Virus record (IMG/VR): IMGVR_UViG_3300044825_003036
Length of the DNA stretch: 20,000 bases
Direction: 5' to 3' (one strand)
Source of the DNA: an uncultured virus (IMG/VR IMGVR_UViG_3300044825_003036)
Taxonomy: Duplodnaviria > Heunggongvirae > Uroviricota > Caudoviricetes
Shown here piece by piece: positions 2,308-18,413 of the stretch (within the stretch, counting starts at the first letter, position 1; the number at the start of each line of letters is the position of its first letter). The notes under the pieces were generated by a model. That model searched no databases and had not been told where the DNA came from. It worked only from the letters and a program-made list of their open reading frames with translations. A program made the translations under genes and the position numbers.

Positions 2308-2337
2308 TGCCGCGGTTGGCGGCAACGAAAGGACAAG
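2308..2337 (+). promoter_or_regulatory. Hairpin + ACGAAAGGACAAG leader/RBS element, copy 1
   Basis: TGCCGC-GGTTG-GCGGCA-ACGAAAGGACAAG, 3 nt before ATG 2341. Confidence 0.85.
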
Positions 2338-2340
2338 ATC

Positions 2341-2541
2341 ATGGACGCAGTATTCAGCAAGATCGGCACGACTCGTGCGGGCAAGCTCACTCACTGGATC
2401 AAGGGTGAGGTGCGCGGCCACCAAGCCCCAGCTTGTGGCCAGAATCGTCGGGCTTGGGGTGCTGGGGACATGAGGACCCTGGCAGCGGAGACCCGCCCAA
2501 CCTGCGCTCACTGTCGCAAGATTCAGGCGGCGAAGGCATGA
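2341..2541 (+). CDS. Small hypothetical protein, possible Zn-binding (H...CG...CxxC)
   Basis: Preceded by the leader element. Contains THW, PACG and TCAHC. Its stop overlaps the next ATG (ATGA). Confidence 0.75.
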   Translation: MDAVFSKIGTTRAGKLTHWIKGEVRGHQAPACGQNRRAWGAGDMRTLAAETRPTCAHCRKIQAAKA

Positions 2542-2639
2542 GCGACGCGACAGCAGCAGCCCCGCTGTTCGCTGTCGTCTCGCTTGCGATGTTGGCGTGC
2601 CTGGTGGTGGCCTGGTGGCTCGAAAGGCCCCGGTCATGA
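2538..2639 (+). CDS. 33-aa single-TM membrane peptide
   Basis: MSDATAAAPLFAVVSLAMLACLVVAWWLERPRS, with ATGA overlaps at both ends. Confidence 0.6.
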   Translation: MSDATAAAPLFAVVSLAMLACLVVAWWLERPRS

Positions 2640-2800
2640 CCAGGCTGCAGCAGCAAACGAACCGACTGGCGGCGCTGAATGACTTGGTGGAGCTGCGCAA
2701 GAGCGCGCGGCAGTTGGCGGCGGAGCGCAGCGCGGAGGAGATCCGGCAGTTGCTCCGCGAGTGGCGACGGAGACAGCGGGATGCTCGCGTTGGTGCGTAG
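2636..2800 (+). CDS. Small helical hypothetical protein
   Basis: Start is ATGA-coupled to the previous stop. MTRLQQQTNRLAALNDLVELRK... reads as an amphipathic helix. Confidence 0.6.
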   Translation: MTRLQQQTNRLAALNDLVELRKSARQLAAERSAEEIRQLLREWRRRQRDARVGA

Positions 2801-2987
2801 AATTCTTGGGCGGTGCCTGCGGTGCAGTCAAAAGCTCGGAGAACTAGCGCCGAGGCATCATGCCTACTGCCAGCGGTGCTGGCTTGGCTACGAGTGGCCG
2901 CGCCACTGCTATGAACGCATTCTGAGGGCTGACAAGGAAAGGGAAAGGGGTGGGGATCATGGGCACAACGGCAAAGATCAGGCATAG
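2781..2987 (+). CDS. Small Zn-finger-like protein
   Basis: MLALVRRILGRCLRC...YCQRCW has two CxxC pairs. Short overlap with the upstream ORF. Confidence 0.55.
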   Translation: MLALVRRILGRCLRCSQKLGELAPRHHAYCQRCWLGYEWPRHCYERILRADKERERGGDHGHNGKDQA

Positions 2988-3174
2988 ACGGGCGCGAGCC
3001 CGACGGCTCACGGCTCAGCGGTGGTTCACCGAAAAGGAGCTGGTTGAGTCTGGGCTATACCGCGAGATCCGAGTGATCTCGGGCGATGAGCTCAGGCAAC
3101 GGTTTTTTTTGGATGCGCGATCAGCTGAGCGCGTCAGGGCGAAATTGGCGAAGTTGAAAGCGGAGGTGGTGTGA
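2959..3174 (+). CDS. Basic hypothetical protein
   Basis: ATG 2959 follows a G-rich RBS. The stop overlaps the next start (GTGATG). Confidence 0.6.
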   Translation: MGTTAKIRHRRARARRLTAQRWFTEKELVESGLYREIRVISGDELRQRFFLDARSAERVRAKLAKLKAEVV

Positions 3175-3806
3175 TGGTCTGGGATCCAGAGGCAGCAAAA
3201 AAGAAAGAGAGCGAGATTCGGCAGCGGCTCAAGGCGGAAGCCGAGGTTCTGTTGGAGTTGGTGGTTGCGGAGCTCGTAAAGCGTGGTTTCAAGGCCGAGC
3301 CGATTGCCTTGGGCCAGCGTGCAGGGGTTGGCTCAGGATCCGCTAGGCGGCGCGCGATGTTGCTGATCGGGCAGCAGCGTGTCCCGTTGTGGATTGAACA
3401 GGACCGCGAAACTGGCACCCTTGGCCGCTCCATATGGCAAGATTGGTTGCGGGTTTCGTGCGATGGGATTTACGGCGGTTTTCGAACCCGCGAAATCCCG
3501 ATGCGAAGCAAGACGTTTGCTCGGTCGAAGTCGCGAGAAGCGACCTACGGTTTTGACGTCGAGAAGATTGCAGACCACTGCGAGGCGTGGGCAGCGCTGG
3601 ATGTCTCCACTCGCCTGAAAGAAGAGCTCAGTGACTCGGCCCTGGAAGCCTGGGAAAAGGCCAAGGAGCGCCTCGTGTTACAATTCCCCTCGGCAGAGGG
3701 ACACCTGAGCGCGACGGACAAGGGTTTGAGCTTGAAACTGTTGGTAAACGAGGGCCAGGCGGTAGCGTTGCTGGAGCTCCTGAAGTTGAACGAAAAGGGC
3801 CGCTGA
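3174..3806 (+). CDS. Hypothetical protein
   Basis: ~210-aa ORF coupled to the upstream stop, with plausible composition but no recognised motif. Confidence 0.75.
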   Translation: MVWDPEAAKKKESEIRQRLKAEAEVLLELVVAELVKRGFKAEPIALGQRAGVGSGSARRRAMLLIGQQRVPLWIEQDRETGTLGRSIWQDWLRVSCDGIYGGFRTREIPMRSKTFARSKSREATYGFDVEKIADHCEAWAALDVSTRLKEELSDSALEAWEKAKERLVLQFPSAEGHLSATDKGLSLKLLVNEGQAVALLELLKLNEKGR

Positions 3807-3826
3807 GGCGGCAACGAAAGGACAAG
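3799..3826 (+). promoter_or_regulatory. Hairpin + ACGAAAGGACAAG leader/RBS element, copy 2
   Basis: GCCGC-TGAG-GCGGC-AACGAAAGGACAAG upstream of ATG 3832. The loop contains the upstream gene's TGA stop. Confidence 0.85.
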
Positions 3827-3831
3827 AGGAA

Positions 3832-4809
3832 ATGACGACGACGAAAGAACAGGTGGGCGCGGTGTTGGCTTCGGGCGGCACCCAAACGATTGGAGCTTTG
3901 GTGTTCTGGTCGCTGGCTTCGGTGAGAGTGAAGCGAGACGAGTTCCGCGAGCGGCTGACCTCCCTCGGACTGGACAGTGCCATGGGCAAGGACCCGTCCC
4001 CCCGCAGCGCGCTGAGCAAGGCCGTTGCGGCGGCCTTCACTGGGCGCAAAGGCGTGATGGCGCGGCGTTTGGCGAACGGCAACGTCGGGATCGTGCTGGA
4101 GCGAATTACGGCCGGGCACGCCAAGTATCGGCACGTCGCGACGGTTTCGGCACATTCCGGGGCTTTTCAAACAGACGCTGAGGTCGAACCGTTGCCAGCA
4201 ACCAGCTCCGGCCCCGTCGTGTCCTATGAAGGGGAGACTGAGGGAGTTCCCGCGCGTGAAGCGCTCACAGCTGTGGCCCCGTCGCTCTTGGCTGAGCTGG
4301 GCGCGGCGTACGAGACCGCCAACAGCTACCTGCTCACCAACGACCTGAGTGAGGTGTTGATTTCGGCAGTCAACGGAAGCCCGCACCGTGGGCTTCTGGC
4401 GGGGCTCAGCCTGCGCGAGCGGACCGGCGGGCTCTACTTCATTGCTGGGCCCTACGTGGAGCGGATGCAGCAGCTCCAGCACCTGATCCAGGACGTGGCA
4501 CCGTCGTGTGTCGTGTCGGTGATGACCATCACTGGATCCAAAGAGAACCTTGGCGAGGCGGCTCGCGCGGCTAAGCTGACGTTTGCGGCGCAGCTCGACG
4601 AGCTGAAGACCGAGCTGGTGGACTTCAAGGCGGGGCTGCAGATGAAGGGCAAGGGCGCGTCCGAGTATTCGATCGAGACCCGGATCGAGCGGTACAAGGA
4701 CTTGGCCGCGCGAGTGGCGGTGTTCAAAGACTTGCTTGGGGTCGATGACCTGGAGCGTCAGATCGAGGCGGCCAAGACGGAGATGGTCAAAGAGCTGGAG
4801 GGCCTGTGA
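3832..4809 (+). CDS. DUF6744/DUF3150-like protein with C-terminal coiled coil
   Basis: N-terminal GALVFWSL...LTSLGL...PSPRSALSKAV and internal LRERTGGLYFI recall this mobile-element family; the C-terminus is helical. The ORF is solid, but the family call is from memory. Confidence 0.65.
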   Translation: MTTTKEQVGAVLASGGTQTIGALVFWSLASVRVKRDEFRERLTSLGLDSAMGKDPSPRSALSKAVAAAFTGRKGVMARRLANGNVGIVLERITAGHAKYRHVATVSAHSGAFQTDAEVEPLPATSSGPVVSYEGETEGVPAREALTAVAPSLLAELGAAYETANSYLLTNDLSEVLISAVNGSPHRGLLAGLSLRERTGGLYFIAGPYVERMQQLQHLIQDVAPSCVVSVMTITGSKENLGEAARAAKLTFAAQLDELKTELVDFKAGLQMKGKGASEYSIETRIERYKDLAARVAVFKDLLGVDDLERQIEAAKTEMVKELEGL

Positions 4810-5057
4810 CGCCACGGCAGCAGCTGGTTTGGGCTCGCCGGTGGCTCCAGGTTCATAAGTTTTGGCTGTTGGTGTTTTCCTGCATTCATCAGCCACGTTG
4901 CCTGCTCCTGCGAGTTGCTGCAGTGCTTGACCGTCATGGGCACAAGGCTCTCGACCGAGCCGGAACCGCGAGAGCCAAGGCGCAGTTTCTGCTCGATGAG
5001 ATCGCGAAGAACCCAGAACAGCAGGCCTTTTGGGCTGCAGAGAAGGATCGAACGTGA
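4806..5057 (+). CDS. Hypothetical protein
   Basis: GTGA overlaps at both ends. Confidence 0.6.
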   Translation: MTPRQQLVWARRWLQVHKFWLLVFSCIHQPRCLLLRVAAVLDRHGHKALDRAGTARAKAQFLLDEIAKNPEQQAFWAAEKDRT

Positions 5058-5275
5058 ACGACGACCGGGAAGTGTTTTGGACTCGGATGGTGGTTGCCGC
5101 GCTGTCGAATCCCGCGGTGACGGACGGGCCAGCGGCGCACGTGGCGGAACGAGCTGCCGATCTGGCGGATTGTGCGCTAGTGGAGTTCGATGCCCGTTTT
5201 CGCAGGGACAGCAGCTCGGACCAAGGTGATCCTGAGGAGGCACAAGCCGATCTACCAGATCAAGAACTTCCGTGA
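5054..5275 (+). CDS. Small phage hypothetical protein
   Basis: GTG start overlaps the upstream TGA. AERAADLADCALVEFDARF is a helical pattern typical of small phage proteins. Confidence 0.65.
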   Translation: MNDDREVFWTRMVVAALSNPAVTDGPAAHVAERAADLADCALVEFDARFRRDSSSDQGDPEEAQADLPDQELP

Positions 5276-5570
5276 GAAGTTCCTCTGGCGGCTCGCTGAG
5301 CTTGGGCTGGACCAGGTGGACGTCGCTCAGCGAATGGGCGTGATCCATCGGCGGGTGAAAGCGATCCTCCATGCAAGGCGGATCGAGGAGGCTACTCTGG
5401 CGCGGGTGAGCGCGGCGCTGGAGTGGCCGATCGAGCGGTGGCAGCGCCGGCTACGGGTGCCTAAGTCGCCAGCCAAGACGGCGCTTCGGCACCTCATGGC
5501 GCACGCCGAGCAACAAGCAAAAAAACTGGAGCAGCCGAAAACTTTCCGCTTGCCCCGCTCCGGCGAGTAA
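5226..5570 (+). CDS. XRE/Cro-like helix-turn-helix transcriptional regulator
   Basis: LAELGLDQVDVAQRMGVIHRRVKAIL...EATLARVSAALEW matches the HTH_XRE pattern. The start is uncertain (GTG 5226 or ATG 5190). Confidence 0.8.
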   Translation: MILRRHKPIYQIKNFREKFLWRLAELGLDQVDVAQRMGVIHRRVKAILHARRIEEATLARVSAALEWPIERWQRRLRVPKSPAKTALRHLMAHAEQQAKKLEQPKTFRLPRSGE

Positions 5571-5583
5571 GGGAAGTTTTGGG
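5538..5583 (+). promoter_or_regulatory. Repeated promoter/operator-like motif, copy 2
   Basis: AAAACTT...CTTGCC-N13-TAAGGGAAGTTTTGGG, containing TTGCCC-17-GAAGTT. It overlaps the end and TAA stop of the XRE gene. Confidence 0.7.
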
Positions 5584-5584
5584 G

Positions 5585-5614
5585 GTCGCGGTTTGGCGAC
5601 AACGAAAGGACAAG
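5585..5614 (+). promoter_or_regulatory. Hairpin + ACGAAAGGACAAG leader/RBS element, copy 3
   Basis: GTCGC-GGTTTG-GCGAC-AACGAAAGGACAAG before ATG 5620. The stem has a compensatory C-G to T-A change relative to copies 1 and 2. Confidence 0.85.
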
Positions 5615-5619
5615 CGGAA

Positions 5620-5835
5620 ATGGCAGCTGAAAAGGCACAGGTTGTTGTGGGTGGGTTCGTTCAGGCTCACGTCATGCTACATGCGGACGCGAACGTTCGA
5701 ACGATGTTCCCCTTGCTCCGTCGCAAGGGCTGCCTGGACTCCCAGATCTGGGACTCGATCCGTGAGCTCCGCGCTCGCGGGCTGAACTACGACGCGGTCA
5801 CTGGGGCTTTGCAGTTCGTCAAGGTGGCTGGGTAA
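5620..5835 (+). CDS. Small hypothetical protein
   Basis: ATG 5620 follows the leader element; MAAEKAQVVVGG... Confidence 0.7.
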   Translation: MAAEKAQVVVGGFVQAHVMLHADANVRTMFPLLRRKGCLDSQIWDSIRELRARGLNYDAVTGALQFVKVAG

Positions 5836-5853
5836 AGAAGGGGCCGGGGGGCT

Positions 5854-6036
5854 ATGAGCGAGGACGAGCGAGACACGATTCGCTGCAGTCCCGAGGAGCC
5901 GACGATCCCTGCGCAAGCGCCAAGCTGCGCGGCGGAGCCGGAGGTTCCACGGGACTCAGAGTGGGCAGGTTTTTCAACTGAAATGGCCGCAATTTTGGCC
6001 GAGATACTGGAGGCAGAGTGCAAGATTTGTTCGTGA
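5854..6036 (+). CDS. Small acidic hypothetical protein
   Basis: 60-aa ORF with a G-rich RBS, filling the gap before the ATPase. Confidence 0.5.
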   Translation: MSEDERDTIRCSPEEPTIPAQAPSCAAEPEVPRDSEWAGFSTEMAAILAEILEAECKICS

Positions 6037-7151
6037 ACTTGGGGAAGTCATTGGGTGCTACGTTTCGTGAACGTGACGAAGTGATCAATGGGCTGATGTG
6101 TGCGGCGCTGGCGCAGGAGCACGTGCTTCTGCTCGGGCCACCTGGTACGGCCAAGAGCGCGCTGGCGCGAGCGTTTGCGGAGTCGGTGGGCGGCCACCAT
6201 TTCGAGTGGCTGCTCAGCAAGTTCACCGCGCCGGAGGAGCTGTTTGGGCCGATCTCGTTGCAGGGGCTCAAGGCAGATCGCTACCGTCGAGTGACGACCG
6301 GCAAGCTGCCCGAGGCGGAAACGGTGTTCCTGGACGAGATCTTCAAGGGCGGTTCGGCGATCCTGAATACGCTCCTGGCCGCGATCAACGAACGCGTGTT
6401 CCACAACGACGGCCAGGTGCAAAAGCTGCCGCTCCGAATGGTGATCGGCGCGTCCAACGAGCTACCCGAGGGCCCCGAGCTCGGCGCACTCTACGACCGG
6501 TTCTTGTTGCGCTACTGGGTGGGTTACCTGCAGGGCCCGACCCAGTTTATTTCGATGATGCGTTCGTCGGAGCAGCTGTTCTCTCGGGTCATTTCGACCG
6601 AGCAATGGGACACGGCGCGGGCAGAGGTCGCTAAGCTTCCGGTCGATCCGGACTTGTACCAGAGCTTTTTCAAGCTCCGCACCGAGGCGCAGAAGGTCGG
6701 TCTAGCGCTCTCGGACCGACGTTGGATGCGGATGATTCGCCTAGTCAAGGCCAGCGCTTGGCTTGCTGGGGACAAGGTCGCCGACCTGGAGCATTTCGAC
6801 GTGTTGAAGGCGGCGCTGTGGAGCGACCCAGGCGAGCGCGACGCAGCCAACAAGCTCGTGGAAGACACGGTCGGCGGCGTGCTGACGCTGGCGGCGTCGG
6901 TGAGCCAGACGATCGAGCGGCAGGTGCAGAATGCTCAGCTGGACTTGGCTATTCCGGCGCGTGATGCTGAGTGGCAGCGGAAGCTGATCACAGCGCAGCA
7001 AGAAACGTCGCGCGGCGTCGCGCGGCTCAAAGAGCTGCAGACGCAGGCGGCAACCAAGAGTCAGAAGGCCAAGCTGGCGGCGCTGGTCGAGAAGGCCGAG
7101 CAGACCGTGGCCCCGGTGAAAGCCACCCTCAAGGCATCGCTGGAGATCTGA
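6018..7151 (+). CDS. MoxR-family AAA+ ATPase (RavA-like)
   Basis: HVLLLGPPGTAKS (Walker A), FTAPEELFGP, VFLDEIFK (Walker B), ILNTLL..INER, GASNELP, LYDRF and LSDRRW are all RavA-like signatures. Confidence 0.95.
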   Translation: MQDLFVNLGKSLGATFRERDEVINGLMCAALAQEHVLLLGPPGTAKSALARAFAESVGGHHFEWLLSKFTAPEELFGPISLQGLKADRYRRVTTGKLPEAETVFLDEIFKGGSAILNTLLAAINERVFHNDGQVQKLPLRMVIGASNELPEGPELGALYDRFLLRYWVGYLQGPTQFISMMRSSEQLFSRVISTEQWDTARAEVAKLPVDPDLYQSFFKLRTEAQKVGLALSDRRWMRMIRLVKASAWLAGDKVADLEHFDVLKAALWSDPGERDAANKLVEDTVGGVLTLAASVSQTIERQVQNAQLDLAIPARDAEWQRKLITAQQETSRGVARLKELQTQAATKSQKAKLAALVEKAEQTVAPVKATLKASLEI

Positions 7152-9028
7152 TGACGCATCTTATTACTGCGGGCGATGGTACCCAAATGACGGTTGCTGA
7201 CGATGCCTTCGATCCAGACCCTGGGAGCTCGATTCGCCGAGACCGCTTTACGGTTCGGTCCGCTCGACGGGTTGAGATCGGGGGCCGTTTCTCCGCTTGC
7301 CTCGATCTCAACGGCGGTGGCTTTTGGGCGGTGCAAAACACCTCCAATTCCAAAGGCGGTCCGCCGGTAGCGACTTTGGCTGGTAGTGTTTGGAGCAAGG
7401 AGCACTCGCGCCAACTCGCGGCCTTGGCTGACGGCGTTCCCTACGTCCCTGGGGTGCCCGCTTTTGGCAAGCCTAGCCAGAGTCCCGAGGATATCGCCAA
7501 GGCGATGCTGGAGGTGCTTGTGCAGAGTCGCGACGCCACAGTGGAGTCAACGGACATGGTTCGTTACTTGGTAGGCAACGAGGCAGCGGCAGGAGGGACT
7601 TTTCGCGAGGCGTGCCTGCGCCACGAGAACGAGACATGGCCAACGTTCGCGCGTGAGCTGTTCGCCTCGCTCTACGATGAGCCAAAGCCAACAGACAGCA
7701 GACCGCAAGGACCCGAGTGGATAGTTACGTTGCTGCAGGCCGCCAAGAACAGCGCAAGCTGGCCCGATCTGCAGCGCCTAGCCAAGGGCGAGCCGTGGTC
7801 GGCGGGAGTAGGCGCCGCGGAGATCGTCCAGGCCCTGGGCGAGACAATCAACGATCTGCTGGAGGAGCTCCCGAAAGAGGACCCACAACGACTGCAGGAC
7901 CAGGCGGACCAGCTGGCGGAGATGGTCGGAGAGGACCACGAGGCGACGACGGAGGAGCAAGCAAAGGCGGACGCGGTGCAGGCAGCCCAGCTGAAGGTCG
8001 CGGAGGCGCTACAGACGCTCGATTTGGCCAGCGTCCCGGCGGCTGTGACGGCCGCTGTCCAAGCTCTGGCTGGCATCGATGGGCAGCTGCAGGCGCTTGG
8101 AGCGGGGAGCAACAACCCCAACCCGTTGCTTGCCAGCACCCCTCACGAGGTGCGCGAAGCCCTGGCAAAGAACCCCGTCCTGCGGGGGATTGCTGACGTC
8201 GCGGGGCGACTGCGCGTCGCGGCGCGCGCTGTAAAACGGAACAAGGTTCGGTACCTGCCCGAGCAGATCGTGGACGTGTCGTTGGGGGCAGAGCTCTCGC
8301 GGCTGCTTCCTGCTGAGCTGCTCCAGTTGGCTGAGCCTGACGTCGAGGACAACCTGTTGCGGAAGCTGTCGGAGTCCCAGGCGATGGTCTACGACCTGGA
8401 AGGGTCAGAGCCGGTCAAGATGGGGCCGATTGTGGTCGCCATCGATTCGTCCTCCTCGATGGCTGGCCAGCGTTACGAGTGGGCAATGGGCGTGGCGCTC
8501 GCGCTGGTTGAGCGAGCGGTGTCGGACAAGCGGCCTTTCCGGCTCTTCACGTTCGCAATGCGACCCAACACGGTCTACACCGTGGACAAGCCGCGGGACA
8601 TTACCGTGCATCTGCTCCAGGAAATGCTGACGACATTCTCGGGCGGTGGGACCGACATTGGTCGAGCGGTGCGCCAAGCGGCGGAGCTCACTCGGGACAA
8701 GACGTGGACCAAGGCGGACCTGGTGCTGATCTCCGACGGTGAAGACGGCGATTTCTCGCCCAGCTTGTACGAGCTTTCTGAGCAGGGCGTCTGCGCTTAC
8801 GGGATCTCGATCGGATCGACGTTCTCGGAGCCGGTCAAGTCGGCGATGAGTGGCGTAGCGGCGGTCTCGGACCTACAGATCCAAGATGGCAGCGCCAACG
8901 TGGACGTGGTGTTTGGGCTCGATGGGGTTCCCAGAACGCTCCCAACACCTGCAGTTGTGAGTAAAGTGGATTCACTTGCAGCGGAGACAGCGGCGGCTCG
9001 TAAGCGAGCGATGGACACTCCGTTTTGA
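7151..9028 (+). CDS. VWA-domain protein (ViaA-like partner of the AAA+ ATPase)
   Basis: TGATG coupling to the ATPase. It has LGAELSRLLPAELL, the MIDAS motif GPIVVAIDSSSSM, GGGTD and ADLVLISDG. Confidence 0.92.
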   Translation: MTHLITAGDGTQMTVADDAFDPDPGSSIRRDRFTVRSARRVEIGGRFSACLDLNGGGFWAVQNTSNSKGGPPVATLAGSVWSKEHSRQLAALADGVPYVPGVPAFGKPSQSPEDIAKAMLEVLVQSRDATVESTDMVRYLVGNEAAAGGTFREACLRHENETWPTFARELFASLYDEPKPTDSRPQGPEWIVTLLQAAKNSASWPDLQRLAKGEPWSAGVGAAEIVQALGETINDLLEELPKEDPQRLQDQADQLAEMVGEDHEATTEEQAKADAVQAAQLKVAEALQTLDLASVPAAVTAAVQALAGIDGQLQALGAGSNNPNPLLASTPHEVREALAKNPVLRGIADVAGRLRVAARAVKRNKVRYLPEQIVDVSLGAELSRLLPAELLQLAEPDVEDNLLRKLSESQAMVYDLEGSEPVKMGPIVVAIDSSSSMAGQRYEWAMGVALALVERAVSDKRPFRLFTFAMRPNTVYTVDKPRDITVHLLQEMLTTFSGGGTDIGRAVRQAAELTRDKTWTKADLVLISDGEDGDFSPSLYELSEQGVCAYGISIGSTFSEPVKSAMSGVAAVSDLQIQDGSANVDVVFGLDGVPRTLPTPAVVSKVDSLAAETAAARKRAMDTPF

Positions 9029-9123
9029 GGGCCGATCAGGTTCTACCCGGTGACCAGGTAGTTGACCCTGGCACCGAGGGGCCGCGCCAAGGATGCACGG
9101 TCCCTGCAGGACGAAAGATGCGA

Positions 9124-9150
9124 GGGCGCAGGCCCGTACGAAAGGACAAG
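9124..9150 (+). promoter_or_regulatory. Hairpin + ACGAAAGGACAAG leader/RBS element, copy 4
   Basis: GGGC-GCAG-GCCC-GT-ACGAAAGGACAAG before ATG 9155. The stem sequence differs but pairing is kept. Confidence 0.8.
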
Positions 9151-9154: not shown

Positions 9155-10447
9155 ATGCGACGACTACAGATCCTCACGAATAGCGAGGTCGAGACCTACC
9201 GCAATTGCGGGGCAAAACATGGGTTTGCCTACCAGCAGTTGCTCCGGCCGCGAATCGATGGCGAGGCCAAGCCCGCTGGCTCGATCCTCCACGCTGGTAT
9301 CGAGGCGGGCTGGCGTGCAGCGTGGGAGCAACCCGACACGCTCGACGGGCGCCTGCAGCGGGCGATCGCGGCGTCGGCGGAGACGATCGCGTCGGCGACG
9401 CTGGACGAGTGCAAACGCGTCGCGCTGCTCGGCGGCGAGGGCTCGGACGAGCTGATCGCGAAGCTGGAGGGGCAAAGCGAAGCACTTCGCTGGAGCGTGG
9501 AGAACTACTTTCGGGCGACGCGTCCCGATCTGGACTACGTCCCGGTGTGCATTGAGCGGCAGTTCTCGTTCCTTGTGCCGACCGACCGCGGCAACGACTC
9601 GATGGTGTCCTATCAGGGTAAGACGGACCTGGTGTTGTGGGACCGCGAGGCGAACCGTTTGATCGTCCAGGACCACAAGGGGACGGGGCTCGGCGTGCGG
9701 CAACTGGAGCGCAAGATCCCGCTCGACACCCAGCTTTCTGGGTATGTTTTTTGGGTTCGGAAAGCGCTACGTGACCTTGCAGCACAGCCGGAATCCCCGT
9801 TGCTCGCGATGGCCGTAGGCGCTCCGGTTCACGCCTGGGAGACGATTCGGGATAACCCACCAATCACGGCCCCAGTGGTTGGCTCGATTGCCTTCAACGT
9901 GCTCCGTCGCAAGCAGCCGGAGACGCCCGGGATCAACATCCTCAAAAAGAACGAGGCAGTGACCGAGTGGCAGCGAGAGCTGCTGGCGTTACAAGCCACG
10001 GACGGCAAGCCGCGGGGGTTGGTCTCTGTTGCCGACTGCGACACCACGCCAGGCATTTACGGCGACGCGTTGACGGAGCAGCTGGTGGGTCGCGGGCTAG
10101 AGATCACGGACAAGCAGCGCGAGCGGCTGGAGAAGATCCGTCACAAGGCGGGGTTCTTCGCCCAGCTGGAGTATTACCGAGGCGAGGCGGAGCTGGAACG
10201 CTGGCGCCGCGAGTTGTTGCTGGACGCCAAGAAGATCCGCGACGACGGCCGAGCCGGGCAGCGCTCGCGCAATCCCGGGGCGTGTGCCCAGCCGTGGAGC
10301 CCGCCGTGCGCATACGCGACCGTTTGCCAGGCGCCGGCCGATCCGGTAGCACTGGCGCAATACGTGGTGGTGGACAGGCCCCACCAGGAACTGGAGCAGC
10401 AAGACCATGGCAGCGAAGAAGACCAGCAAATCCACGACTACATCTGA
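9155..10447 (+). CDS. PD-(D/E)XK exonuclease, AddB/Cas4-like with putative 4Fe-4S ligands
   Basis: N-terminal NSEVETYRNC, GSILH, E in CIERQF, GKTDLV...VQDHK, QLSGY, and C-terminal C-x7-C-x5-C (CAQPWSPPCAYATVC). The start was chosen at the ATG after the leader element. Confidence 0.88.
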   Translation: MRRLQILTNSEVETYRNCGAKHGFAYQQLLRPRIDGEAKPAGSILHAGIEAGWRAAWEQPDTLDGRLQRAIAASAETIASATLDECKRVALLGGEGSDELIAKLEGQSEALRWSVENYFRATRPDLDYVPVCIERQFSFLVPTDRGNDSMVSYQGKTDLVLWDREANRLIVQDHKGTGLGVRQLERKIPLDTQLSGYVFWVRKALRDLAAQPESPLLAMAVGAPVHAWETIRDNPPITAPVVGSIAFNVLRRKQPETPGINILKKNEAVTEWQRELLALQATDGKPRGLVSVADCDTTPGIYGDALTEQLVGRGLEITDKQRERLEKIRHKAGFFAQLEYYRGEAELERWRRELLLDAKKIRDDGRAGQRSRNPGACAQPWSPPCAYATVCQAPADPVALAQYVVVDRPHQELEQQDHGSEEDQQIHDYI

Positions 10448-10858: not shown

Positions 10859-10888
10859 TGCCGCGGTTGGCGGCAACGAAAGGACGAG
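10859..10888 (+). promoter_or_regulatory. Hairpin + ACGAAAGGAC(G)AG leader/RBS element, copy 5
   Basis: TGCCGCGGTTGGCGGCAACGAAAGGAC is identical over 27 nt to 2308-2334; ATG at 10895. Confidence 0.88.
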
Positions 10889-10894: not shown

Positions 10895-11968
10895 ATGAAA
10901 CGGTTGGACGATCGGGAGTCGGTGTGGCTGAAAGCGGCGATCTACGGAAAGCCAGGCACGGGAAAGACGTCTATCGGGGTTAGCGCGCCCAAGCCGCTGA
11001 TTCTGTTGGCTGAGGCGCAAGGCCTGGTCCATGTGCGGCAGGCGGCGAAGCGGCTGGGGGTTCCCGTGCCACCCACGTTTTTGATCGAGAGCGTGGACGA
11101 CTACCGGGCTTGGCTGCGCGCCCTCAACGGGGACCGGTCCAAGCCGCTAACGGTGCGCGAGCGGCACACAGTCGACGGCAAGATCGAGGAGATCGTTGTG
11201 GTCCAGCTCGACGAATGGCCCGAGACGGTGGTGTTGGATTCGCTGACGGAGGCAGGGACGCTGATCGTCCGTGAGATCCGTTGGTTGTCGCCTCCGACGA
11301 AGGGTAAGGACGGGCTCCCAACGGATTCGCAGCGCTTTTGGAACGTGCTGGGGGACCGTTTCAAAGCGCTCGTCCATGGTTTCCGCGATTTGCCAATGCA
11401 CGTGCTTTTCCTGGGTCTGATGGACGACCGCTCGGAGGGCGAGGAGGACGCAAAGACCCGCAACGTCACGATGGATCTGCCGATGCGCAAGCTCCCAGCG
11501 CTTGTGAGTTCGGCGGTAAACGTCGTGGGGTATTCGTACCGTCGCGAGGTGCGCAAAGCGAACAAGCCCACCGAGCTCCAATATGGCGTCATGACCTCCG
11601 GCCCGGAGTACATGATGCTAAAGCCAATGAGGCCGCTCCGCGACACTGAAGTGCCCAACTTCGCGCGATGGGTTGCGGCTGTTCGTGGGCACTTGGCTGA
11701 CGCGAGTCCAGCGCCGGAGCCGTCTGGGGAATCCCTGATGGCCGGAGACCTGGAGCCGCAGCCGCAGCCAACGACGGCAGAAGGCGAGCCGGTTCAAGAA
11801 GGGGCGGCGCCCGACGGTGAACCACCGCGCGCTCAGGTTGTTGATTTGTTCGATGCCCAGACCAGCCTAGCTGGTGTGGGCGAGGCAGAGGAAGGGGCTG
11901 AGCCCCAGGCAAAGAAGGCCAAGAAAGGAAAAAAGAACGATGCCCAAGATGGGTCCGAGGGGAACTGA
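10895..11968 (+). CDS. AAA_24 / Sak4-like phage recombination NTPase
   Basis: IYGKPGTGKT (Walker A), VVLDSLT (Walker B) and LPMHVLF. It sits between a nuclease and an SSB-like gene, as in Sak4 modules. Confidence 0.85.
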   Translation: MKRLDDRESVWLKAAIYGKPGTGKTSIGVSAPKPLILLAEAQGLVHVRQAAKRLGVPVPPTFLIESVDDYRAWLRALNGDRSKPLTVRERHTVDGKIEEIVVVQLDEWPETVVLDSLTEAGTLIVREIRWLSPPTKGKDGLPTDSQRFWNVLGDRFKALVHGFRDLPMHVLFLGLMDDRSEGEEDAKTRNVTMDLPMRKLPALVSSAVNVVGYSYRREVRKANKPTELQYGVMTSGPEYMMLKPMRPLRDTEVPNFARWVAAVRGHLADASPAPEPSGESLMAGDLEPQPQPTTAEGEPVQEGAAPDGEPPRAQVVDLFDAQTSLAGVGEAEEGAEPQAKKAKKGKKNDAQDGSEGN

Positions 11969-12614: not shown

Positions 12615-13275
12615 GCCCCGAGAGATCGCGATCCGAGTCACGGGGCTTCTGCATCGGTTTCTGTCGTCCAAGTTGACGGCGTCAAAGCTGGCGCAGGAGC
12701 TCCGGGCTCTAGCCGACTGGATCGAGCCGGCGGTTGGCTCCAAGGCTGTCCAGCAGCCGGTGGAGGCCCCAACCGGTCAAGAGGTGGAGCTGTTCCGCTA
12801 CTGGCAGACGGCGATGGGCAAACCCCAGGCCAAGCTCACGCCAGAGCGGCGCGCGAAGCTCCGGGCTCGGCTCAAAGAGGGCTACACTCCCGAGCAGATT
12901 AGGCTAGCGATCGACAACGTGGCGGGGTCTTCCTACCACCGAGGCGAGAACACGAACGGCCAGGAGTACGCAGATCTTACGTTGATCTGTCGAAACGGCA
13001 GCAAGCTGGAGCAATACGCGGCAATGGGCGCGGGGACGATCCAGCTTTCAGAACCAGGCGGTCGCGAGTCGGCCGTCCCACAAGGACAAGAAGCGCTGAT
13101 CCAGCGTCTACAGCGAGAGGCGGCTGCGCAATTGGCGGCCGGTGACGTGAATGCCTACAATGCGACCCAGCAACAGATCCTCGCGCTCCGAGGAGGCGGC
13201 TCAAGCGCTGTCGACCGTCGGGGCGCCAACGGCGCTGGCCGATCGAGTTCGGCAGGCGTTGGACGTGGTGCGTAA
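12556..13275 (+). CDS. Phage replication-initiator-like C-terminal domain protein
   Basis: ELFRYWQ...KLTPERRAKLRARLKEGYTPEQIRLAID...YADLTLICRNGSKLEQY resembles the conserved C-terminal domain of phage replication proteins. The start is uncertain (ATG 12544 or 12556, or TTG 12673). Confidence 0.65.
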   Translation: MVTPNSTTAATAPLPPTNSKPREIAIRVTGLLHRFLSSKLTASKLAQELRALADWIEPAVGSKAVQQPVEAPTGQEVELFRYWQTAMGKPQAKLTPERRAKLRARLKEGYTPEQIRLAIDNVAGSSYHRGENTNGQEYADLTLICRNGSKLEQYAAMGAGTIQLSEPGGRESAVPQGQEALIQRLQREAAAQLAAGDVNAYNATQQQILALRGGGSSAVDRRGANGAGRSSSAGVGRGA

Positions 13276-14090: not shown

Positions 14091-14617
14091 TGGAGCGCTG
14101 GGACTGGAAGCAGAAGCGGCACGTGGCGAAGTTCCGCGGCGAGCGCTTCGCGGCGCTAGACCCAGGGCAACACGGTTGCCTGATGGTGTGCGACTGGGAG
14201 CTCGGCGTCCTGCCAGTTCGTTTGGCTAACCCGCTCCACGTCGAGGTCTGCGCCAAGATGCTAGCGGCGCTGGACGTCCACGTGTTGGTGGCGGAAACGC
14301 AGTATGTCACCAATCCGCGGCTTGCGCGCGCGGTGACGGAGTTGACGTTCTCGATGGGGATCTTGGTTGGGTTTGCGGCGGCGCGGTTGGAGTGGCCGCT
14401 CCAGCTGTTCGAGGTGGCCCCAGCGTCGTGGCAGGCGGAACAGAAACGTCGGCACGCCCCAGAGGAACCCAAGCGCAAGGGGTTTGCGGCCGATCTGATG
14501 ATGACGGTAGGCAAGGCCCAGCTTGGGCAGACGCTCGATTGGCGGCAGGCGGACCAGTCCGCGCAGACGGGACTTGCCGCGGCATGGGCGATCGCAGAAT
14601 GGTGGCGGGCGCTGTGA
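14090..14617 (+). CDS. RuvC-like (RNase H fold) resolvase homolog, possibly inactive
   Basis: FAALDPGQHG (motif I), VLVAETQY (motif II), SMGILVG and EVAPASWQ. The C-terminal acidic motif reads TGLAAAWAIA. Confidence 0.7.
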   Translation: MERWDWKQKRHVAKFRGERFAALDPGQHGCLMVCDWELGVLPVRLANPLHVEVCAKMLAALDVHVLVAETQYVTNPRLARAVTELTFSMGILVGFAAARLEWPLQLFEVAPASWQAEQKRRHAPEEPKRKGFAADLMMTVGKAQLGQTLDWRQADQSAQTGLAAAWAIAEWWRAL

Positions 14618-14910
14618 ACATCTACCAGCAACGCGCCGAGCTGCGCCGCAGCTACCATCGGTTGGCGGCGGCGGCGGTGTTCTACGAGCTCAGCTCGCGC
14701 CCAGCTTTTCTCTGGGTGCATGTTGAGCAGCGCGGCCCACGGCTGACGGTGACGTTCTGGCTGGGCAATCGCGCTTGGTTGGGTCTAGGGTTGGTGCACG
14801 TTTACAGGTGGGTGCAATGTCGGAGCGTAGCAAAGCGGGCGATCAAACGAGTTCGGGTTCCAATGGGGCTCAAGGTGAAGATCCAGAGCCGACGCCCCAA
14901 GAGCGGATAG
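14614..14910 (+). CDS. Basic hypothetical protein
   Basis: GTGA-coupled start; overlaps the next ORF by ~90 nt. Confidence 0.45.
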   Translation: MNIYQQRAELRRSYHRLAAAAVFYELSSRPAFLWVHVEQRGPRLTVTFWLGNRAWLGLGLVHVYRWVQCRSVAKRAIKRVRVPMGLKVKIQSRRPKSG

Positions 14911-15224
14911 ACGCGACGATGTGGCGCGTGATTCGAGACTTGGCGCTCGTGGTCTGCTTGCAAGGGAGCAACAAGCGCCCCAGCGATCTGACGACGCAGG
15001 CACAGAACGAGCTGCTGACCCCGTTCATTTCGACGCTGGTGGGAGCCCACGGCATGCTTCGAGAGTGTGGGCAGCAGTATGTCCTGCTTGGGTTGCGAGA
15101 GGTGCACCAACGCCTCCACGGTCAGCCCGGCGTGGACCACGAAATGCTCGATCAGACGCTGGAGTTTCACAGCAACCAGAACGGCGCGGAGTACGAGGAC
15201 GAGCCGTATATTTTGGAGAAATGA
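14817..15224 (+). CDS. Hypothetical protein
   Basis: MSERSKAG... ORF with plausible helical composition and an acidic C-terminus. Confidence 0.65.
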   Translation: MSERSKAGDQTSSGSNGAQGEDPEPTPQERIDATMWRVIRDLALVVCLQGSNKRPSDLTTQAQNELLTPFISTLVGAHGMLRECGQQYVLLGLREVHQRLHGQPGVDHEMLDQTLEFHSNQNGAEYEDEPYILEK

Positions 15225-15232
15225 GGACAAGG

Positions 15233-15988
15233 ATGAAAAGGATTAGCTTGTTTTTACTGCTGTTTTTGGCAGCGGCGACACCGGCCCCAGTGGCGCCGGA
15301 GTGGACGGCTGTGCACGCTGTGGTTCATGGGTTCGCTCGGTCCAATTCGGACCTGAAAGAGGACACTGCAGATCTGGCAGAGGCGCGCCGCAACGTCACC
15401 AACGCAGTGTTTGCCGCCACCGCGGTCACGACTGAGCGCGCCGCGCTGTTGGCTGCTGGCCACGCTGAAACGCTTTTCGCTCTGCGCCTCGGGCTCGATG
15501 AGTGTCGGCCAGGGGAATGTGACGATGGCCTAGCTCGTGGTTACTGGCAGGTGCACGAGCCGCTTTGCCCTGACGCTTGGGCGATGGACCCCGGCGCCGA
15601 GCGCGCGAAGCTGGAGGCCGTTTGCGCGCTCCGGTTCCTGCGCTACAAGGCTGGTCAGTGCGGCTCACTCAAAGCGGCCGTGTCTGGCTTTACGGGGGAT
15701 TGCCGCCCAAGGGACCGAGCGATTCGGGATCGAGCCTATGAGGTGGCGCTGGATGTGCTGACGCGTGGGGAGTGGCCGGCGGCGCCGCAGTTCGCCAAGC
15801 CAGCGGGCGACGTGCCTCGGGCGGTGATCGCTCGTGGGGTCGAGTTGACCAAGCGGCTTTCCATGGGCGATACGGTGGTGGTGGACGAGACGTTCGGCGC
15901 GATGGTCGACTGGCACTGGCACGATCCATCGGGGGAGCATCGCCCCAAGGGCTGGCATCGAGGCGTCACGTTCTACCGGCACCCCTAG
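15233..15988 (+). CDS. Signal-peptide-bearing lysozyme/lytic-transglycosylase-like protein with a His/Trp-rich C-terminal domain
   Basis: AGGACAAG RBS and an MKRISLFLLLFLAAA signal peptide. AALLAAGHAET supplies a Glu at a helix end, and DDGLARGYWQVH resembles the SLT GxMQ motif. Several Cys. Confidence 0.6.
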   Translation: MKRISLFLLLFLAAATPAPVAPEWTAVHAVVHGFARSNSDLKEDTADLAEARRNVTNAVFAATAVTTERAALLAAGHAETLFALRLGLDECRPGECDDGLARGYWQVHEPLCPDAWAMDPGAERAKLEAVCALRFLRYKAGQCGSLKAAVSGFTGDCRPRDRAIRDRAYEVALDVLTRGEWPAAPQFAKPAGDVPRAVIARGVELTKRLSMGDTVVVDETFGAMVDWHWHDPSGEHRPKGWHRGVTFYRHP

Positions 15989-16551
15989 TGTATGTCTTGG
16001 ATGTGCCACAACCCCGCGCGGCGGCGTTGATTGCGGGACAGTTGGAGGCCTTGGATTTCTACCGAGCGCCTCCAGCTGACGTTTTGGGTCGGCGAGTAGC
16101 AATCCGAGCTGGCGAGATGGTTAGTTTCGATCTGTGGGCGTTGCGAGTGGGGGCCAAAGTGACCTGGGGCCCAAAGCAGACGTTTGGGCGGGGGATTGTT
16201 GGCACAGCCGTCATAGAAGGGTGGGTCGAGTGGGAGCGCGGCGAGATCGTGAGGCAGACCAGGCCGGGGAATAGTCGGCCTTTCCGCAAGCCTCGGGGTG
16301 TGTGCGGACCGTTCTCGTGGATCTTGCGGCACGCGTCGCTTTCAGGCGCGCCGCCTGGGCCTGATTTGGTGCCGCTTCGCGCTGGATATTGGGACTTGCC
16401 AGAGGTGCAAGAGCACCTGCTATGCTACGCTGAGCGCTATGGGGTGTCAGGACTGGCACCCGATCTGCTGGCGAAGCTGGAGCAGCTGAGGGCGGAACGA
16501 AAGGACAAGACGAATGAAGACGGCAGTCCCCAAAGAGGGGGTTTGGTTTGA
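15988..16551 (+). CDS. ASCH/PUA-like domain protein (divergent)
   Basis: TAGTG-coupled start. VLDVPQPRAAALIAG, GRRVAIRAG, GIVGTAVI, GPFSWIL and GYWDL follow the phage ASCH layout. Confidence 0.7.
   Translation: MYVLDVPQPRAAALIAGQLEALDFYRAPPADVLGRRVAIRAGEMVSFDLWALRVGAKVTWGPKQTFGRGIVGTAVIEGWVEWERGEIVRQTRPGNSRPFRKPRGVCGPFSWILRHASLSGAPPGPDLVPLRAGYWDLPEVQEHLLCYAERYGVSGLAPDLLAKLEQLRAERKDKTNEDGSPQRGGLV
16482..16509 (+). promoter_or_regulatory. ACGAAAGGACAAG leader/RBS element, copy 6 (weak hairpin)
   Basis: GCAGCTGAGGGCGG-AACGAAAGGACAAG before ATG 16514. It resembles copy 2 but lies inside the upstream CDS, and the stem is degraded. Confidence 0.7.
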
Positions 16552-16825
16552 TTGTGAAACTGACGCGGAAGGGAGCCTCCGAACGTACTGGAAGGGCGGG
16601 GTGGTTGTGCTGCGGATCGCGGTCAAGCGAGCCAGGGACCATTTGGGTTGGGCGGTTCTGATTGCTTGGGTTGGGCCTGAGAAGGCTCACACCCACGAGT
16701 CGGGCCCGTTCATCCAGCGCGAGACGGCGGAAGCTGTGGCTATCGCGGCGGGGATTGGTGTTCAGGTAGTGATGCCAGCTCGGCACGTATCGACGATCCC
16801 AGCGACGGGCATCAGTGGGGATTGA
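16514..16825 (+). CDS. Hypothetical protein
   Basis: Preceded by the leader element; TGATG coupling to the next gene. Confidence 0.7.
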   Translation: MKTAVPKEGVWFDCETDAEGSLRTYWKGGVVVLRIAVKRARDHLGWAVLIAWVGPEKAHTHESGPFIQRETAEAVAIAAGIGVQVVMPARHVSTIPATGISGD

Positions 16826-17073
16826 TGAGCGAGCTAACAGCAGCGCCGGAAGATGCGGCGCCAGAGACCTACATTCTGAGCGACGAGGAGCACTTGCGCT
16901 GCCTGATCGCTGGCGCAGCCCAGTTGGGGTTGGTGCCGGCTGAACGGTTGGCGCGAGTAAGCCGGGCTCGGTTCGAGCAGGTGGCCAACGGGGCAGTGTT
17001 GGCGCTCTGGGTTCGGCCGGCTCCAGTTGAACCGCGAGCACCACGCCCAAAGCGGAAGCGGAACACCCAATGA
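16825..17073 (+). CDS. Hypothetical protein
   Basis: Coupled at both ends (TGATG, ATGA); basic C-terminus. Confidence 0.65.
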   Translation: MSELTAAPEDAAPETYILSDEEHLRCLIAGAAQLGLVPAERLARVSRARFEQVANGAVLALWVRPAPVEPRAPRPKRKRNTQ

Positions 17074-17363
17074 TCGAGCCCCAGCGGTCGGAGCCATACC
17101 TGACGTTCATTCGTCAACTGCCGTGCTTGTTCTGCAAGCGTGCACCTGGCGGGCAGGCCCATCACGAGGGCAAGCGGCAAGGCGGCGGGGTGTCGCTCAA
17201 GGGCTGCGACTTCCACACGGTGCCGCTGTGCGCTGGCTGTCATGCGGAGTACCACCAACGAGCTCGGATCCAATTCTGGTCGGTCGAGGAGACTCAGCGG
17301 CGTTTCGCGCGCTCAATCGAGCGGACAATGAAGCGCTGGAGGACAGAGCATGGCAGCGCGTAA
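17070..17363 (+). CDS. DUF968-like His-Me finger (HNH-like) Zn nuclease
   Basis: RSEPYLTFIRQLPCLFC...AHH...GVSLKGCDFHTVPLCAGCHAEYH is typical of the phage DUF968/Ref-like family. Confidence 0.85.
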   Translation: MIEPQRSEPYLTFIRQLPCLFCKRAPGGQAHHEGKRQGGGVSLKGCDFHTVPLCAGCHAEYHQRARIQFWSVEETQRRFARSIERTMKRWRTEHGSA

Positions 17364-17850
17364 GAAGAAAATGTCCAAGCGGGAGCAGCTCCTGGCTCGG
17401 CACGTCGCGATCCGTCTGCTCGCTTCGATGGCGGAGGACGATGAGGTGATCGAGGCGCTGGTCAAGCAATACAACATCCAGGACGCGCTAGCGAAACGGA
17501 TCGTGGTGTCGGCCTGGGACGAAATTATCAGCGCGGACGACGGTATGGTGACGAGCCAAAAGAAGGGGCTCCTGCTGATGGCGACCCGAGAACACTACCG
17601 CCGCTGCCTGGAGGCGAAAGACCTAGCGCAGGGGACGGCGTCGCTCCGGCTCTTGGCGCGGCTGTTCGGCGTGGACAAGAGCGATCCAACGTCGATCGAC
17701 CCATCGCAACCAGCGAAGGACGAGTTCGCGGGACGGAGCCCCGCAGATCTGCGGTTCTACGCTCAAAACGGCCATTTCCCGGAGGAGGCACGGGCCCCTC
17801 AGGCTAAGAAGTCAACGAAAACGGAGGACCCCCTTTCGGGGCTACACTGA
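17350..17850 (+). CDS. Helical phage protein, possibly terminase small subunit-like
   Basis: N-terminal HTH-like segment, then YRRCLEAKDL...SLRLLARLFGVD, reminiscent of small-terminase-like helical proteins. No large terminase is adjacent. Confidence 0.45.
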   Translation: MAARKKKMSKREQLLARHVAIRLLASMAEDDEVIEALVKQYNIQDALAKRIVVSAWDEIISADDGMVTSQKKGLLLMATREHYRRCLEAKDLAQGTASLRLLARLFGVDKSDPTSIDPSQPAKDEFAGRSPADLRFYAQNGHFPEEARAPQAKKSTKTEDPLSGLH

Positions 17851-17853
17851 CCA

Positions 17854-18216
17854 ATGAACGAAGTCGCTACAGACCAACACGGCCGCCCGCTGCTCAAGGG
17901 GCTGGCAAAAAAACTGATCGTCCTAGAACGCCGTCGGGAGTTCCTGTTGGAGTCGCTGGATCGTCGGACCGGGCCCGGCGGAAACAAGGGCCGGCAGTTT
18001 GCCGAGCAGGAGGCGGACGCGCTGGGCACCGCGATTGTGGCGCTAAGATACCACCTTGCTGTAATCGAGGGGCTCGACACTCCCATTTCTGTGTTGCGGG
18101 AGGTGGTTACTGCCTACGACGGACCACCAAACGGAGAAGCGAAGTTGCGCGCGGCGGTGCGTCGCGGTAGGGCTGTCGTGGACGAGTTCGAGGCTCTTAC
18201 GAGGACGACGGCATGA
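17854..18216 (+). CDS. Hypothetical protein
   Basis: 120-aa helical ORF with ATGA overlap downstream. Confidence 0.7.
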   Translation: MNEVATDQHGRPLLKGLAKKLIVLERRREFLLESLDRRTGPGGNKGRQFAEQEADALGTAIVALRYHLAVIEGLDTPISVLREVVTAYDGPPNGEAKLRAAVRRGRAVVDEFEALTRTTA

Positions 18217-18371
18217 CTCAACGACGGCGCGCAGTGGTGGTGGAGTTCCCCAACGGGGTCGAGACGAAACCCACGTTGCAGCGCCGACGACGTCAGTCGG
18301 GGGTGGTGGCTGTTACGTGGCAGAAAAGAAAAAGGGGGCCGACAGAAAGTTTCCCTTTGCTGCGCGGATGA
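18213..18371 (+). CDS. 52-aa Arg/Lys-rich hypothetical protein (not in ORF track)
   Basis: ATGA-coupled start; MTQRRRAVVVEFPNGVETKPTLQRRRRQSGVVAVTWQKRKRGPTESFPLLRG. Confidence 0.45.
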   Translation: MTQRRRAVVVEFPNGVETKPTLQRRRRQSGVVAVTWQKRKRGPTESFPLLRG

Positions 18372-18413
18372 CCAGAGCTAGGTTTGCGGTGGGCTAGGGC
18401 CCGAACGAAAGGG
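18346..18413 (+). promoter_or_regulatory. Putative promoter followed by a variant hairpin + ACGAAAGG element (copy 7)
   Basis: AAAGTTTCCC, then TTGCTG (18357-18362)-16-TAGGTT (18379-18384), then GGGC-TAGG-GCCC-GA-ACGAAAGGG (18391-18413). Confidence 0.55.

Follow-up and report, generated by a model that had tools for sequence, protein, structure and literature searches.

A 20,000-nucleotide stretch of DNA from the uncultured virus IMGVR_UViG_3300044825_003036 (Caudoviricetes), hereafter "the window", carries a short dispersed element: a small G+C-rich hairpin followed by a 13-nt tail, set in front of genes on one strand. What is such a repeat for, and does it act as RNA, as DNA, or only as a ribosome-binding site (RBS)? 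The comparisons detailed here indicate that the repeat is a real, selected RNA leader. In our best reading, a family of roughly 60-68-kb, myovirus-like phages, itself undescribed, uses the element as a compact mRNA leader. By its sequence features, it is best filed as a structured variant of the SAS/ESAS type of repeat known from Cluster K and EF actinophages.

The preliminary description of this locus had placed the repeat on the + strand at the positions given in Table 1, and a scan with the 13-nt tail bears this out. Allowing up to two mismatches, it gave seven matches where 0.51 would be expected; one of them (3841) is a look-alike in a coding region. The tail is exact at 2325, 3814, 5602, 9138 and 16497; at 10876 a single base differs. 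All copies lie on the + strand with the tail ending 3-6 nt 5' of an ATG, and the reported identity over 27 nt of two copies 8.5 kb apart (2308 and 10859) was found again. Copy counts for the source phage refer to the window. When sites were selected by the tail alone, a start codon lay 3' of all seven ACGAAAGG sites in the window, and a perfect Watson-Crick G+C stem of 4-6 bp, ending 2-4 nt before GAAAG, was present at six of them (2308, 3799, 5585, 9124, 10859 and 18391). Such stems occur at 394 of 6654 sampled positions (5.9%), which gives p = 3e-7, or 4e-6 with the two identical copies counted once. The hairpin ascribed earlier to all six main copies thus stands at five, while copy 6 (16482), located inside the 3' end of open reading frame (ORF) 15988-16551, has no stable stem (minimum free energy -1.0 kcal/mol). 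The variant at 18391 keeps its 4-bp stem and ACGAAAGG and leads into an ORF of 11 codons. This ORF (18422-18457), which overlaps the start of ORF 18454-18627 upstream of a LexA-type gene, could encode a leader peptide for coupling. The bare AGGACAAG at 15224, once listed as a form of the element, is not a copy, and a second one lies in coding DNA at 13083. Copy 2 leads the DUF6744 gene (3832-4809). Directly upstream of copy 4, positions 9100-9117 hold a degenerate hairpin and GAAAG followed immediately by an out-of-frame ATG, which looks like a decayed tandem duplicate.

Table 1. The element and associated features in the window (SD, Shine-Dalgarno sequence)
Feature	Coordinates	Strand	Description
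Copy 1	2308..2337	+	6-bp hairpin 2308-2324, tail 2325-2337, SD 2327-2333; 5' of 66-amino-acid ORF 2341-2541
Copy 2	3799..3826	+	5-bp hairpin 3799-3812, upstream TGA (3804-3806) in loop; tail 3814-3826
Copy 3	5585..5614	+	5-bp hairpin 5585-5600, tail 5602-5614; 5' of 71-amino-acid ORF 5620-5835, upstream of MoxR/vWA pair
Copy 4	9124..9150	+	4-bp hairpin 9124-9135, tail 9138-9150; 5' of PD-(D/E)XK exonuclease 9155-10447
Copy 5	10859..10888	+	6-bp hairpin 10859-10875, tail 10876-10888 (1 mismatch); 5' of Sak4-like annealase 10895-11968
Copy 6	16482..16509	+	exact tail 16497-16509, decayed stem; 5' of 103-amino-acid ORF 16514-16825
Variant copy	18391..18412	+	4-bp hairpin 18391-18402, ACGAAAGG 18405-18412; 5' of 11-codon ORF 18422-18457
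Bare AGGACAAG	15224..15231	+	ordinary SD of ORF 15233; no hairpin, no ACGAA; not a copy
Predicted sigma70-like promoter	2272..2300	+	-35 TTGCCG, 17 nt, -10 GAAGTT; +1 about 2307-2308
Long imperfect inverted repeat	2259..2304	.	over first promoter; -21.7 kcal/mol, z -4.4, 0/200 shuffles as good
Second long inverted repeat	5535..5583	.	over promoter-like site, -35 TTGCCC 5550, -10 GAAGTT 5573-5578; z -3.5
Predicted promoter-like site	18357..18384	+	-35 TTGCTG, 16 nt, -10 TAGGTT; ends 6 nt before variant hairpin

Is the hairpin kept outside this one phage? The relatives compared were five IMG/VR records, two contigs within metagenome-assembled genomes (MAGs) labelled Deltaproteobacteria, and short metagenome contigs; a myxobacterium may be the host, as a candidate only. 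A descriptor was defined as a Watson-Crick stem of at least 4 pairs, a loop of 3-8 nt, a gap of 0-5 nt, GAAAG, a start codon and an ORF of at least 35 amino acids, with the mean of 10 shuffles as control. Observed counts and shuffle means were 6 and 0.8 in the window, 14 and 1.9 in G001, 10 and 1.4 in G003, 5 and 1.0 in both G004 and G005, 5 and 0.9 on the MAG contig of G006, and 3 and 1.0 on that of G007. The count lay above the shuffle maximum in the window, G001, G003, G005 and both MAG contigs. Among the short contigs, L003 gave one hit and L004 two, and L005, L006, L007, L020 and L040 gave none. Start codons of phages and hosts were called with a simple purpose-made gene caller, the host set being 800 kb from two candidate-host genomes. 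The hairpin precedes 34 of 113 phage GAAAG starts versus 36 of 470 other phage starts (p = 2.5e-9), whereas in candidate-host DNA it is not enriched (3/23 GAAAG starts versus 72/668 others, p = 0.73). GAAAG itself was found at 113/583 phage starts versus 23/691 host starts. Hairpin ends peak 1-4 nt before GAAAG (9, 11, 7 and 5, or 32 counts over the 113 starts), with 4 or fewer at any other distance up to 35 nt, and no positional hairpin peak precedes GGAG starts. The distance from stem end to start codon is 13-21 nt in 33 of 34 copies, which puts the stem approximately at the upstream edge of the 30S footprint. Selection by the tail alone in G003 likewise placed 6 of 7 sites at starts, and the six ACGAAAGG sites that lack a start, in all records scanned, have no hairpin at any.

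The preliminary description had also noted that the stems vary in sequence and still pair, and this is upheld by a set of 45 copies, made up of 41 of 54 descriptor hits and four additions (18391, L003-264 and two in L101); three G002 hits and ten sites unlike gene starts were dropped by eye. The set holds 27 distinct stems with both G-C and C-G at every pair position. Because it was chosen for pairing, this count shows diversity, not significance. The orthologous leaders of the DUF6744 gene provide, at the level of sequence, an independent check on the compensated stems. Eleven were compared, the window's included, and four have perfect stems, all different (window, L003, G001 and G006); those of G002, G004, G005, G007, L005 and L006 have no stem by the descriptor, and that of L007 is cut too close to judge. 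Loops are 3-8 nt long and, apart from a 3' G, variable in sequence. In G002, hairpins stand 6-7 nt before GAAAG at the Sak4 and exonuclease genes (L012 19202 and L013 1024), one of them with a G-U pair (by eye).

Several general searches complement these counts. In a structural alignment, MAFFT left the stems out of register, so that the model used was sequence-only; it gave 23 matches in 1.26 Mb, of which 22 were in phage DNA and one (E 1.1) in host DNA. G-U versus A-C stems as a strand test came to 2 versus 6 among 79 starts, too few to inform. Rfam covariance models run on the window matched the tRNA and, below threshold, gyrA elsewhere (E up to 1), and left the element unmatched. An exact 20-mer of the element was not found in viral contigs. 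Two exact-stem scans of viral contigs returned 20 stretches, five of them in G003 or near-identical records, one in the relative L101 and 14 in 11 distinct unrelated contexts. In these contexts the hairpin is a single copy, clearly 5' of a gene in four, including major capsid and prohead protease genes, and it is possible that such leaders arose by chance. Unrelated phages (L087 4006, L099 3133, L103 4017 and L106 4017) carry a single near-identical hairpin and AACGAAAGGA before a gene; in L103 the stop codon of the portal gene apparently lies within the hairpin loop, as at 3799 in the window.

How much of the tail is simply a SD sequence? The 16S rRNA gene ends in CACCTCCTTTCTA in three relatives of G006, so GAAAGGA makes a 7-bp SD at ordinary spacing. 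This takes up, for the candidate hosts, the comparison with the host 16S 3' end that had been proposed, and it accounts for 7 of the 13 tail bases. The flanks AC and CAAG are kept within the window and not across relatives, each phage having its own flanks. The earlier claims of a nearly invariant 13-mer just before the ATG, and of conservation well beyond the SD core, therefore hold within the window and were overstated beyond it. We infer that the 13-mer consists of the SD and its flanks, made uniform by copying in the lineage of the source phage. That it might be the generic RBS consensus of the host, as the preliminary description had allowed, is not borne out, since 61 candidate-host genomes hold 5 matches versus 7 for a reversed control (the host assignment being tentative). 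Between stem and start, purines make up 77% of the spacer, and U accounts for 25 of 576 nt. A CsrA-type site, judged by the generally known CsrA consensus, was rejected because the GGA context is not kept in relatives.

The element was thought to mark genes that are not coupled to an upstream gene, and this is true across relatives: the hairpin stands at 30 of 79 GAAAG starts with a gap of at least 15 nt versus 3 of 33 with shorter gaps (p = 0.003). By a hand list, six window starts with such gaps have the element and four (2959, 5054, 5854 and 13151) do not; at three of these four, an ORF absent from the list reaches up to the start. The hairpin is also found at 16/31 non-structural versus 3/21 core structural GAAAG genes (G001, G003 and G006; hand-sorted; p = 0.008). 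Seven of 33 copies have an upstream stop codon -8 to +4 nt from the stem; overall, stop-to-stem distances span -37 to 1147 nt.

A link to promoters had been missed: a third of the copies lie just behind sigma70-like promoters. A pattern of -35 and -10 boxes, set after inspecting the sequences and with several orthologous hits (5585/L003/L004; G004/G005), was found at 15/45 copies versus 6/261 other uncoupled starts, and a -35-like TTG box lies 35-42 nt before the stem in 13/41. Ten of the 15 promoter-linked copies have a -10 box that ends 4-8 nt upstream of the stem, so that the stem coincides with the predicted +1; by promoter prediction, then, the stem is at the transcript 5' end in 10/45 copies. 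A strict consensus promoter scan found none at the copies. The promoter-like site of the second long inverted repeat recurs in the relatives L003 and L004. An ORF resembling a helix-turn-helix (HTH) regulator (5226-5583; phrog_1373, E 0.0004) ends inside this repeat and its promoter, and its product is a candidate, predicted binder of the repeat and of its twin at 2259-2304.

Comparison with published systems, which follows the available text of the papers cited, places the element nearest to SAS. In Cluster K phages, SAS are 13-bp asymmetric repeats that include a SD and lie 3-7 bp before the ATG (3-9 bp before the start for SAS as a kind of element), in one orientation, in the non-structural arm and at uncoupled genes (PMC3203893, PMC12699233); ESAS are the subset behind a SigA-like promoter with an imperfect inverted repeat (PMC11373665). 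Described in 2011 (PMC3203893), these repeats were still termed ill-defined in 2024 (PMC11373665). The window's element is likewise a repeated asymmetric RBS motif in a single orientation, conserved beyond 16S pairing (within the window, not across relatives), rare in the tentatively assigned host, and concentrated at uncoupled genes of the non-structural arm. Its predicted promoters within the inverted repeats at 2259-2304 and 5535-5583 recall ESAS. It differs from Cluster K SAS in that its tail differs from their consensus at far more than the two positions allowed for a match, and in that structure is conserved between phages here whereas the 13-mer is not; the Cluster K authors found RNA pairing in ESAS repeats unsupported. 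The same descriptor was run on the right parts (from base 30,000) of Anaya and Pixie and on all of AnnaSerena (Cluster EF, MH271292). Adjacent hairpins were found at 0/13 SAS sites in Anaya and 0/16 in Pixie, versus 3/10 with a G+C hairpin 0-5 nt before the SD in AnnaSerena (background 0.053); thus, the hairpin lies outside Cluster K SAS but occurs at some EF sites. The AnnaSerena sites are 29959, 40476 and 42464, with a fourth hairpin slightly further up at 28992, and some stand behind a TATAGT-like -10 box. The SAS/ESAS consensus of Cluster EF Microbacterium phages contains GAAAGGAC (PMC7302621), which the window tail shares. In that other group of hosts and phages, however, the hairpin is a minority feature, and the available text of PMC7302621 makes no mention of it.

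Other known leaders are less close. PeSL cassettes of T4-like phages combine an intergenic promoter, a stem-loop and a SD in about 100 bp and were shown to recombine (PMC2839356, PMC4122927). The long repeats at 2259-2304 and 5535-5583 overlap a promoter as PeSL stems do, but PeSL stems are terminators within the promoter, whereas the small hairpin lies downstream of it with no U-tract on the + strand; further, every PeSL holds a consensus sigma70 promoter, while here one is found at a third of copies by the lenient pattern and at none by the strict scan. The 5' stabilisers of the ermC, atpE and cryIIIA leaders (PMC3997798) share a base-paired 5' end and strong ribosome binding. They are single host leaders with measured effects, whereas the element is a repeated phage module known from sequence alone. 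RTS hairpins (PMC7518266) also stand just behind a stop codon at non-coupled junctions, but are anchored on the stop and have no sequence family; the element is anchored on the downstream SD. Our literature search, partly judged by titles or the starts of abstracts and with most subscription papers outside its scope, found no description of the element.

What, then, might the hairpin do? We favour, tentatively and as a reading that could well prove correct, that a 5'-protective hairpin and a strong RBS together make each gene an autonomous, stable unit. The leader would consist of a 4-8-bp G+C hairpin, 1-4 nt, the SD GAAAG(GA), a purine-rich, nearly U-free spacer and the start codon. Behind sigma70-like promoters the hairpin would begin at or near +1, and because it begins there, the transcript 5' end would be base-paired and resist RppH/RNase E and RNase J, while a ribosome would load directly downstream. 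At internal sites, many of which lie 0-10 nt from an upstream stop, the hairpin and the bound ribosome would block 5'-to-3' decay after cleavage of the upstream RNA. Each marked gene would then act as a separately initiated, long-lived unit. We favour this protective module because the hairpin is fixed to the SD in both contexts and because paired 5' ends block RppH and RNase E: both enzymes depend on an unpaired 5' end, and mRNA gains stability from 5' occlusion and/or a strong SD (PMC3997798). The candidate hosts have RNase E/G in 5/5 cases, and RNase J-like genes match in 4/5, two over the cut-off. When the RNA starts at the stem, the pairing probability exceeds 0.8 in 24/41 copies.

A number of observations weigh against this protective role. 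There is no promoter-like site at 30 of the 45 copies, and for these the model must assume cleavage. The p-value of the promoter association overstates the case, because the pattern was post hoc and some hits are orthologous. Stems are short (4-6 bp), and with 40 nt of upstream RNA their mean pairing probability is 0.52 (34 copies); in a synthetic E. coli study, according to its available text, 10-12-nt stems gave the best transcript level (PMC12743556). The SD is present at core structural genes, mostly without the hairpin. In the complete relative G002 the descriptor fails (3 observed, shuffle mean 2.4). Finally, the last loop base is G in 23/25 near-clade copies (background 0.29) and 1/9 far-clade copies, and a passive barrier needs no such base; shared descent may explain it.

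That loop G, with a C-G closing pair in 20/25 near-clade copies, is among the attractions of translational control, whereby the hairpin would be recognised by the 30S platform, or by an RNA-binding protein of host or phage, and would enhance or repress initiation at a set of early genes. The spacing is locked to the SD and not to promoters or stops, the element is enriched at non-coupled starts and in the non-structural arm, and SAS elements have been proposed to act on initiation (PMC3203893). Nonetheless, no sequence beyond the SD is shared family-wide, the loop G is rare in the far clade, and predicted RBS accessibility is no better than in scrambled controls (0.60 vs 0.60, p = 0.95; 0.72 vs 0.69, p = 0.13). 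In E. coli, translation changed little when hairpins stood upstream of the SD (PMC3592434), a near neutrality that points away from a pure translation role. Nor was a candidate reader found among the window proteins in Pfam, PHROG or Atlas. Of the phage-specific RNA regulon put forward earlier, the phage-family leader, as distinct from a generic host RBS, survives, and the phage protein that reads it was not found. Taken together, we consider translational control possible though unlikely. A more specific form of it, in which the C-G closing pair and 3' loop G, held 1-4 nt from the SD helix, make a signal that would dock on the 30S platform or a phage protein, we regard as doubtful. Three related candidates were tried and rejected. 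The hairpin as RBS insulator was unsupported in two folding tests; a hairpin-stabilised pause geometry showed no pyrimidine preference 9-12 nt after the stem; and ORF 15988-16551, with homologues in G001, G002 and G003, had no Pfam, PHROG or Atlas support as an ASCH-like reader. We take that ORF to resemble ASCH by eye only.

The remaining explanations each account for some copies and leave others aside. Intercistronic punctuation, in which the hairpin would act as an insulator of RTS type or as a barrier at the 3' end of the upstream mRNA, would suit the copies near a stop and the TGA in the loop at 3799, and RTS hairpins after stop codons do insulate translation (PMC7518266); yet it leaves unexplained first-gene copies such as 2308 and the 15 promoter-linked copies, and the spacing is fixed to the SD while the stop distance spans more than 1000 nt. 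We hold it to be improbable. A DNA-level cassette, a PeSL-like repeat or operator spreading by recombination or gene conversion with the hairpin as a palindromic site or a hitchhiker with promoter and RBS, would explain the 27-nt identity, the homogenised version in each phage, and the long inverted repeats that, like those of PeSL and ESAS, overlap promoters, here two of them. Run X4 also includes a strain with extra sequence inserted at 9076/9077, which is 47 nt upstream of copy 4. Unlike those of an operator, though, the arms vary in sequence (27 stems) and spacing (3-8 nt); none of six listed strain joints (contigs only) lies within a copy; the copies have about 30 nt in common, versus about 100 bp for PeSLs (PMC2839356); and copying alone does not produce compensated stems. 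The cassette seems to us distinctly improbable. A nut-like antitermination site read by a phage N-like protein, as suggested in the preliminary description, has in common with the element a repeated hairpin on the sense strand of the early arm. Nut sites are few and not tied to a SD, however, and boxB recognition requires a conserved loop (a GNRA-like pentaloop), whereas the loops here vary so widely in length and sequence that such a role is very improbable; Rfam, too, gives no match besides the tRNA. Chance hairpins beside an ordinary strong RBS in 63% G+C DNA would be in keeping with seven tail bases being SD and with the 79 of 113 phage GAAAG starts that have no hairpin. Against this stand the enrichment at GAAAG starts, the sharp positional peak, the lack of any such signal in the candidate-host DNA and the descriptor counts above the shuffle maximum. 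The chance reading is largely refuted, and we give it almost no credence.

The window represents the non-structural arm of its phage, with a DNA methylase, tRNA-Met, DUF6744, a MoxR/vWA pair, a PD-(D/E)XK exonuclease, a Sak4-like annealase, a replication initiator and a LexA-type HTH protein. Its proteins were found on a 64,481-base contig, and many homologues on 60-69-kb contigs. The family appears myovirus-like because relatives encode terminase, portal, capsid and baseplate wedge proteins (88 hand-chosen proteins, mostly from 166 listed). The DUF6744, MoxR AAA+ and vWA genes (3832-9028) co-occur in most relatives examined. In an annotated phage collection, DUF6744 had no match and Sak4 had three (24-26%), and searches at loci by single proteins returned no relatives or one distant relative only. 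Runs covering at least half of the window were three from freshwater, each flagged as a possible source, and one from animal gut, with no RNA run among them; an RNA run mapped to the window gave coverage over the tRNA only. No 16S gene was found in the two MAGs, a 16S search against plasmids found nothing close, look-ups of clusters yielded no host name, and no further prophage was found among 100 relatives of G006. The tRNA-Met (CAT; 1928-2002) lies upstream of the first promoter, and run X4 has 133 other letters at 1911-1924; a D-stem A-U pair sits where initiator tRNAs typically have one. In run X4, too, position 3562 is followed by a 247-bp block (19454-19700) that holds most of the 77-amino-acid ORF 19506, and in X2 and X5 other contigs give this region high depth; these findings suggest a mobile or widely shared block.

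This phage family supplies three features that Cluster K lacks: natural compensatory stems, a fixed geometry to the SD, and two contexts, at a predicted +1 and between cistrons, by which a role in mRNA stability can be separated from one in translation. Because AnnaSerena, a cultured phage with a laboratory host, shows the same layout at some of its SAS sites, the question can be taken to the bench. If the hairpin were read as a specific signal, the whole family would share a coordinated control of early-gene translation that is based on structure, and some Cluster EF SAS leaders, as well as unrelated phages, would carry a simpler, overlooked form of that signal. If, instead, the protective reading that we favour is true, these phages would build autonomous gene cassettes from a 30-nt part, one that might also be used for expression in G+C-rich bacteria.

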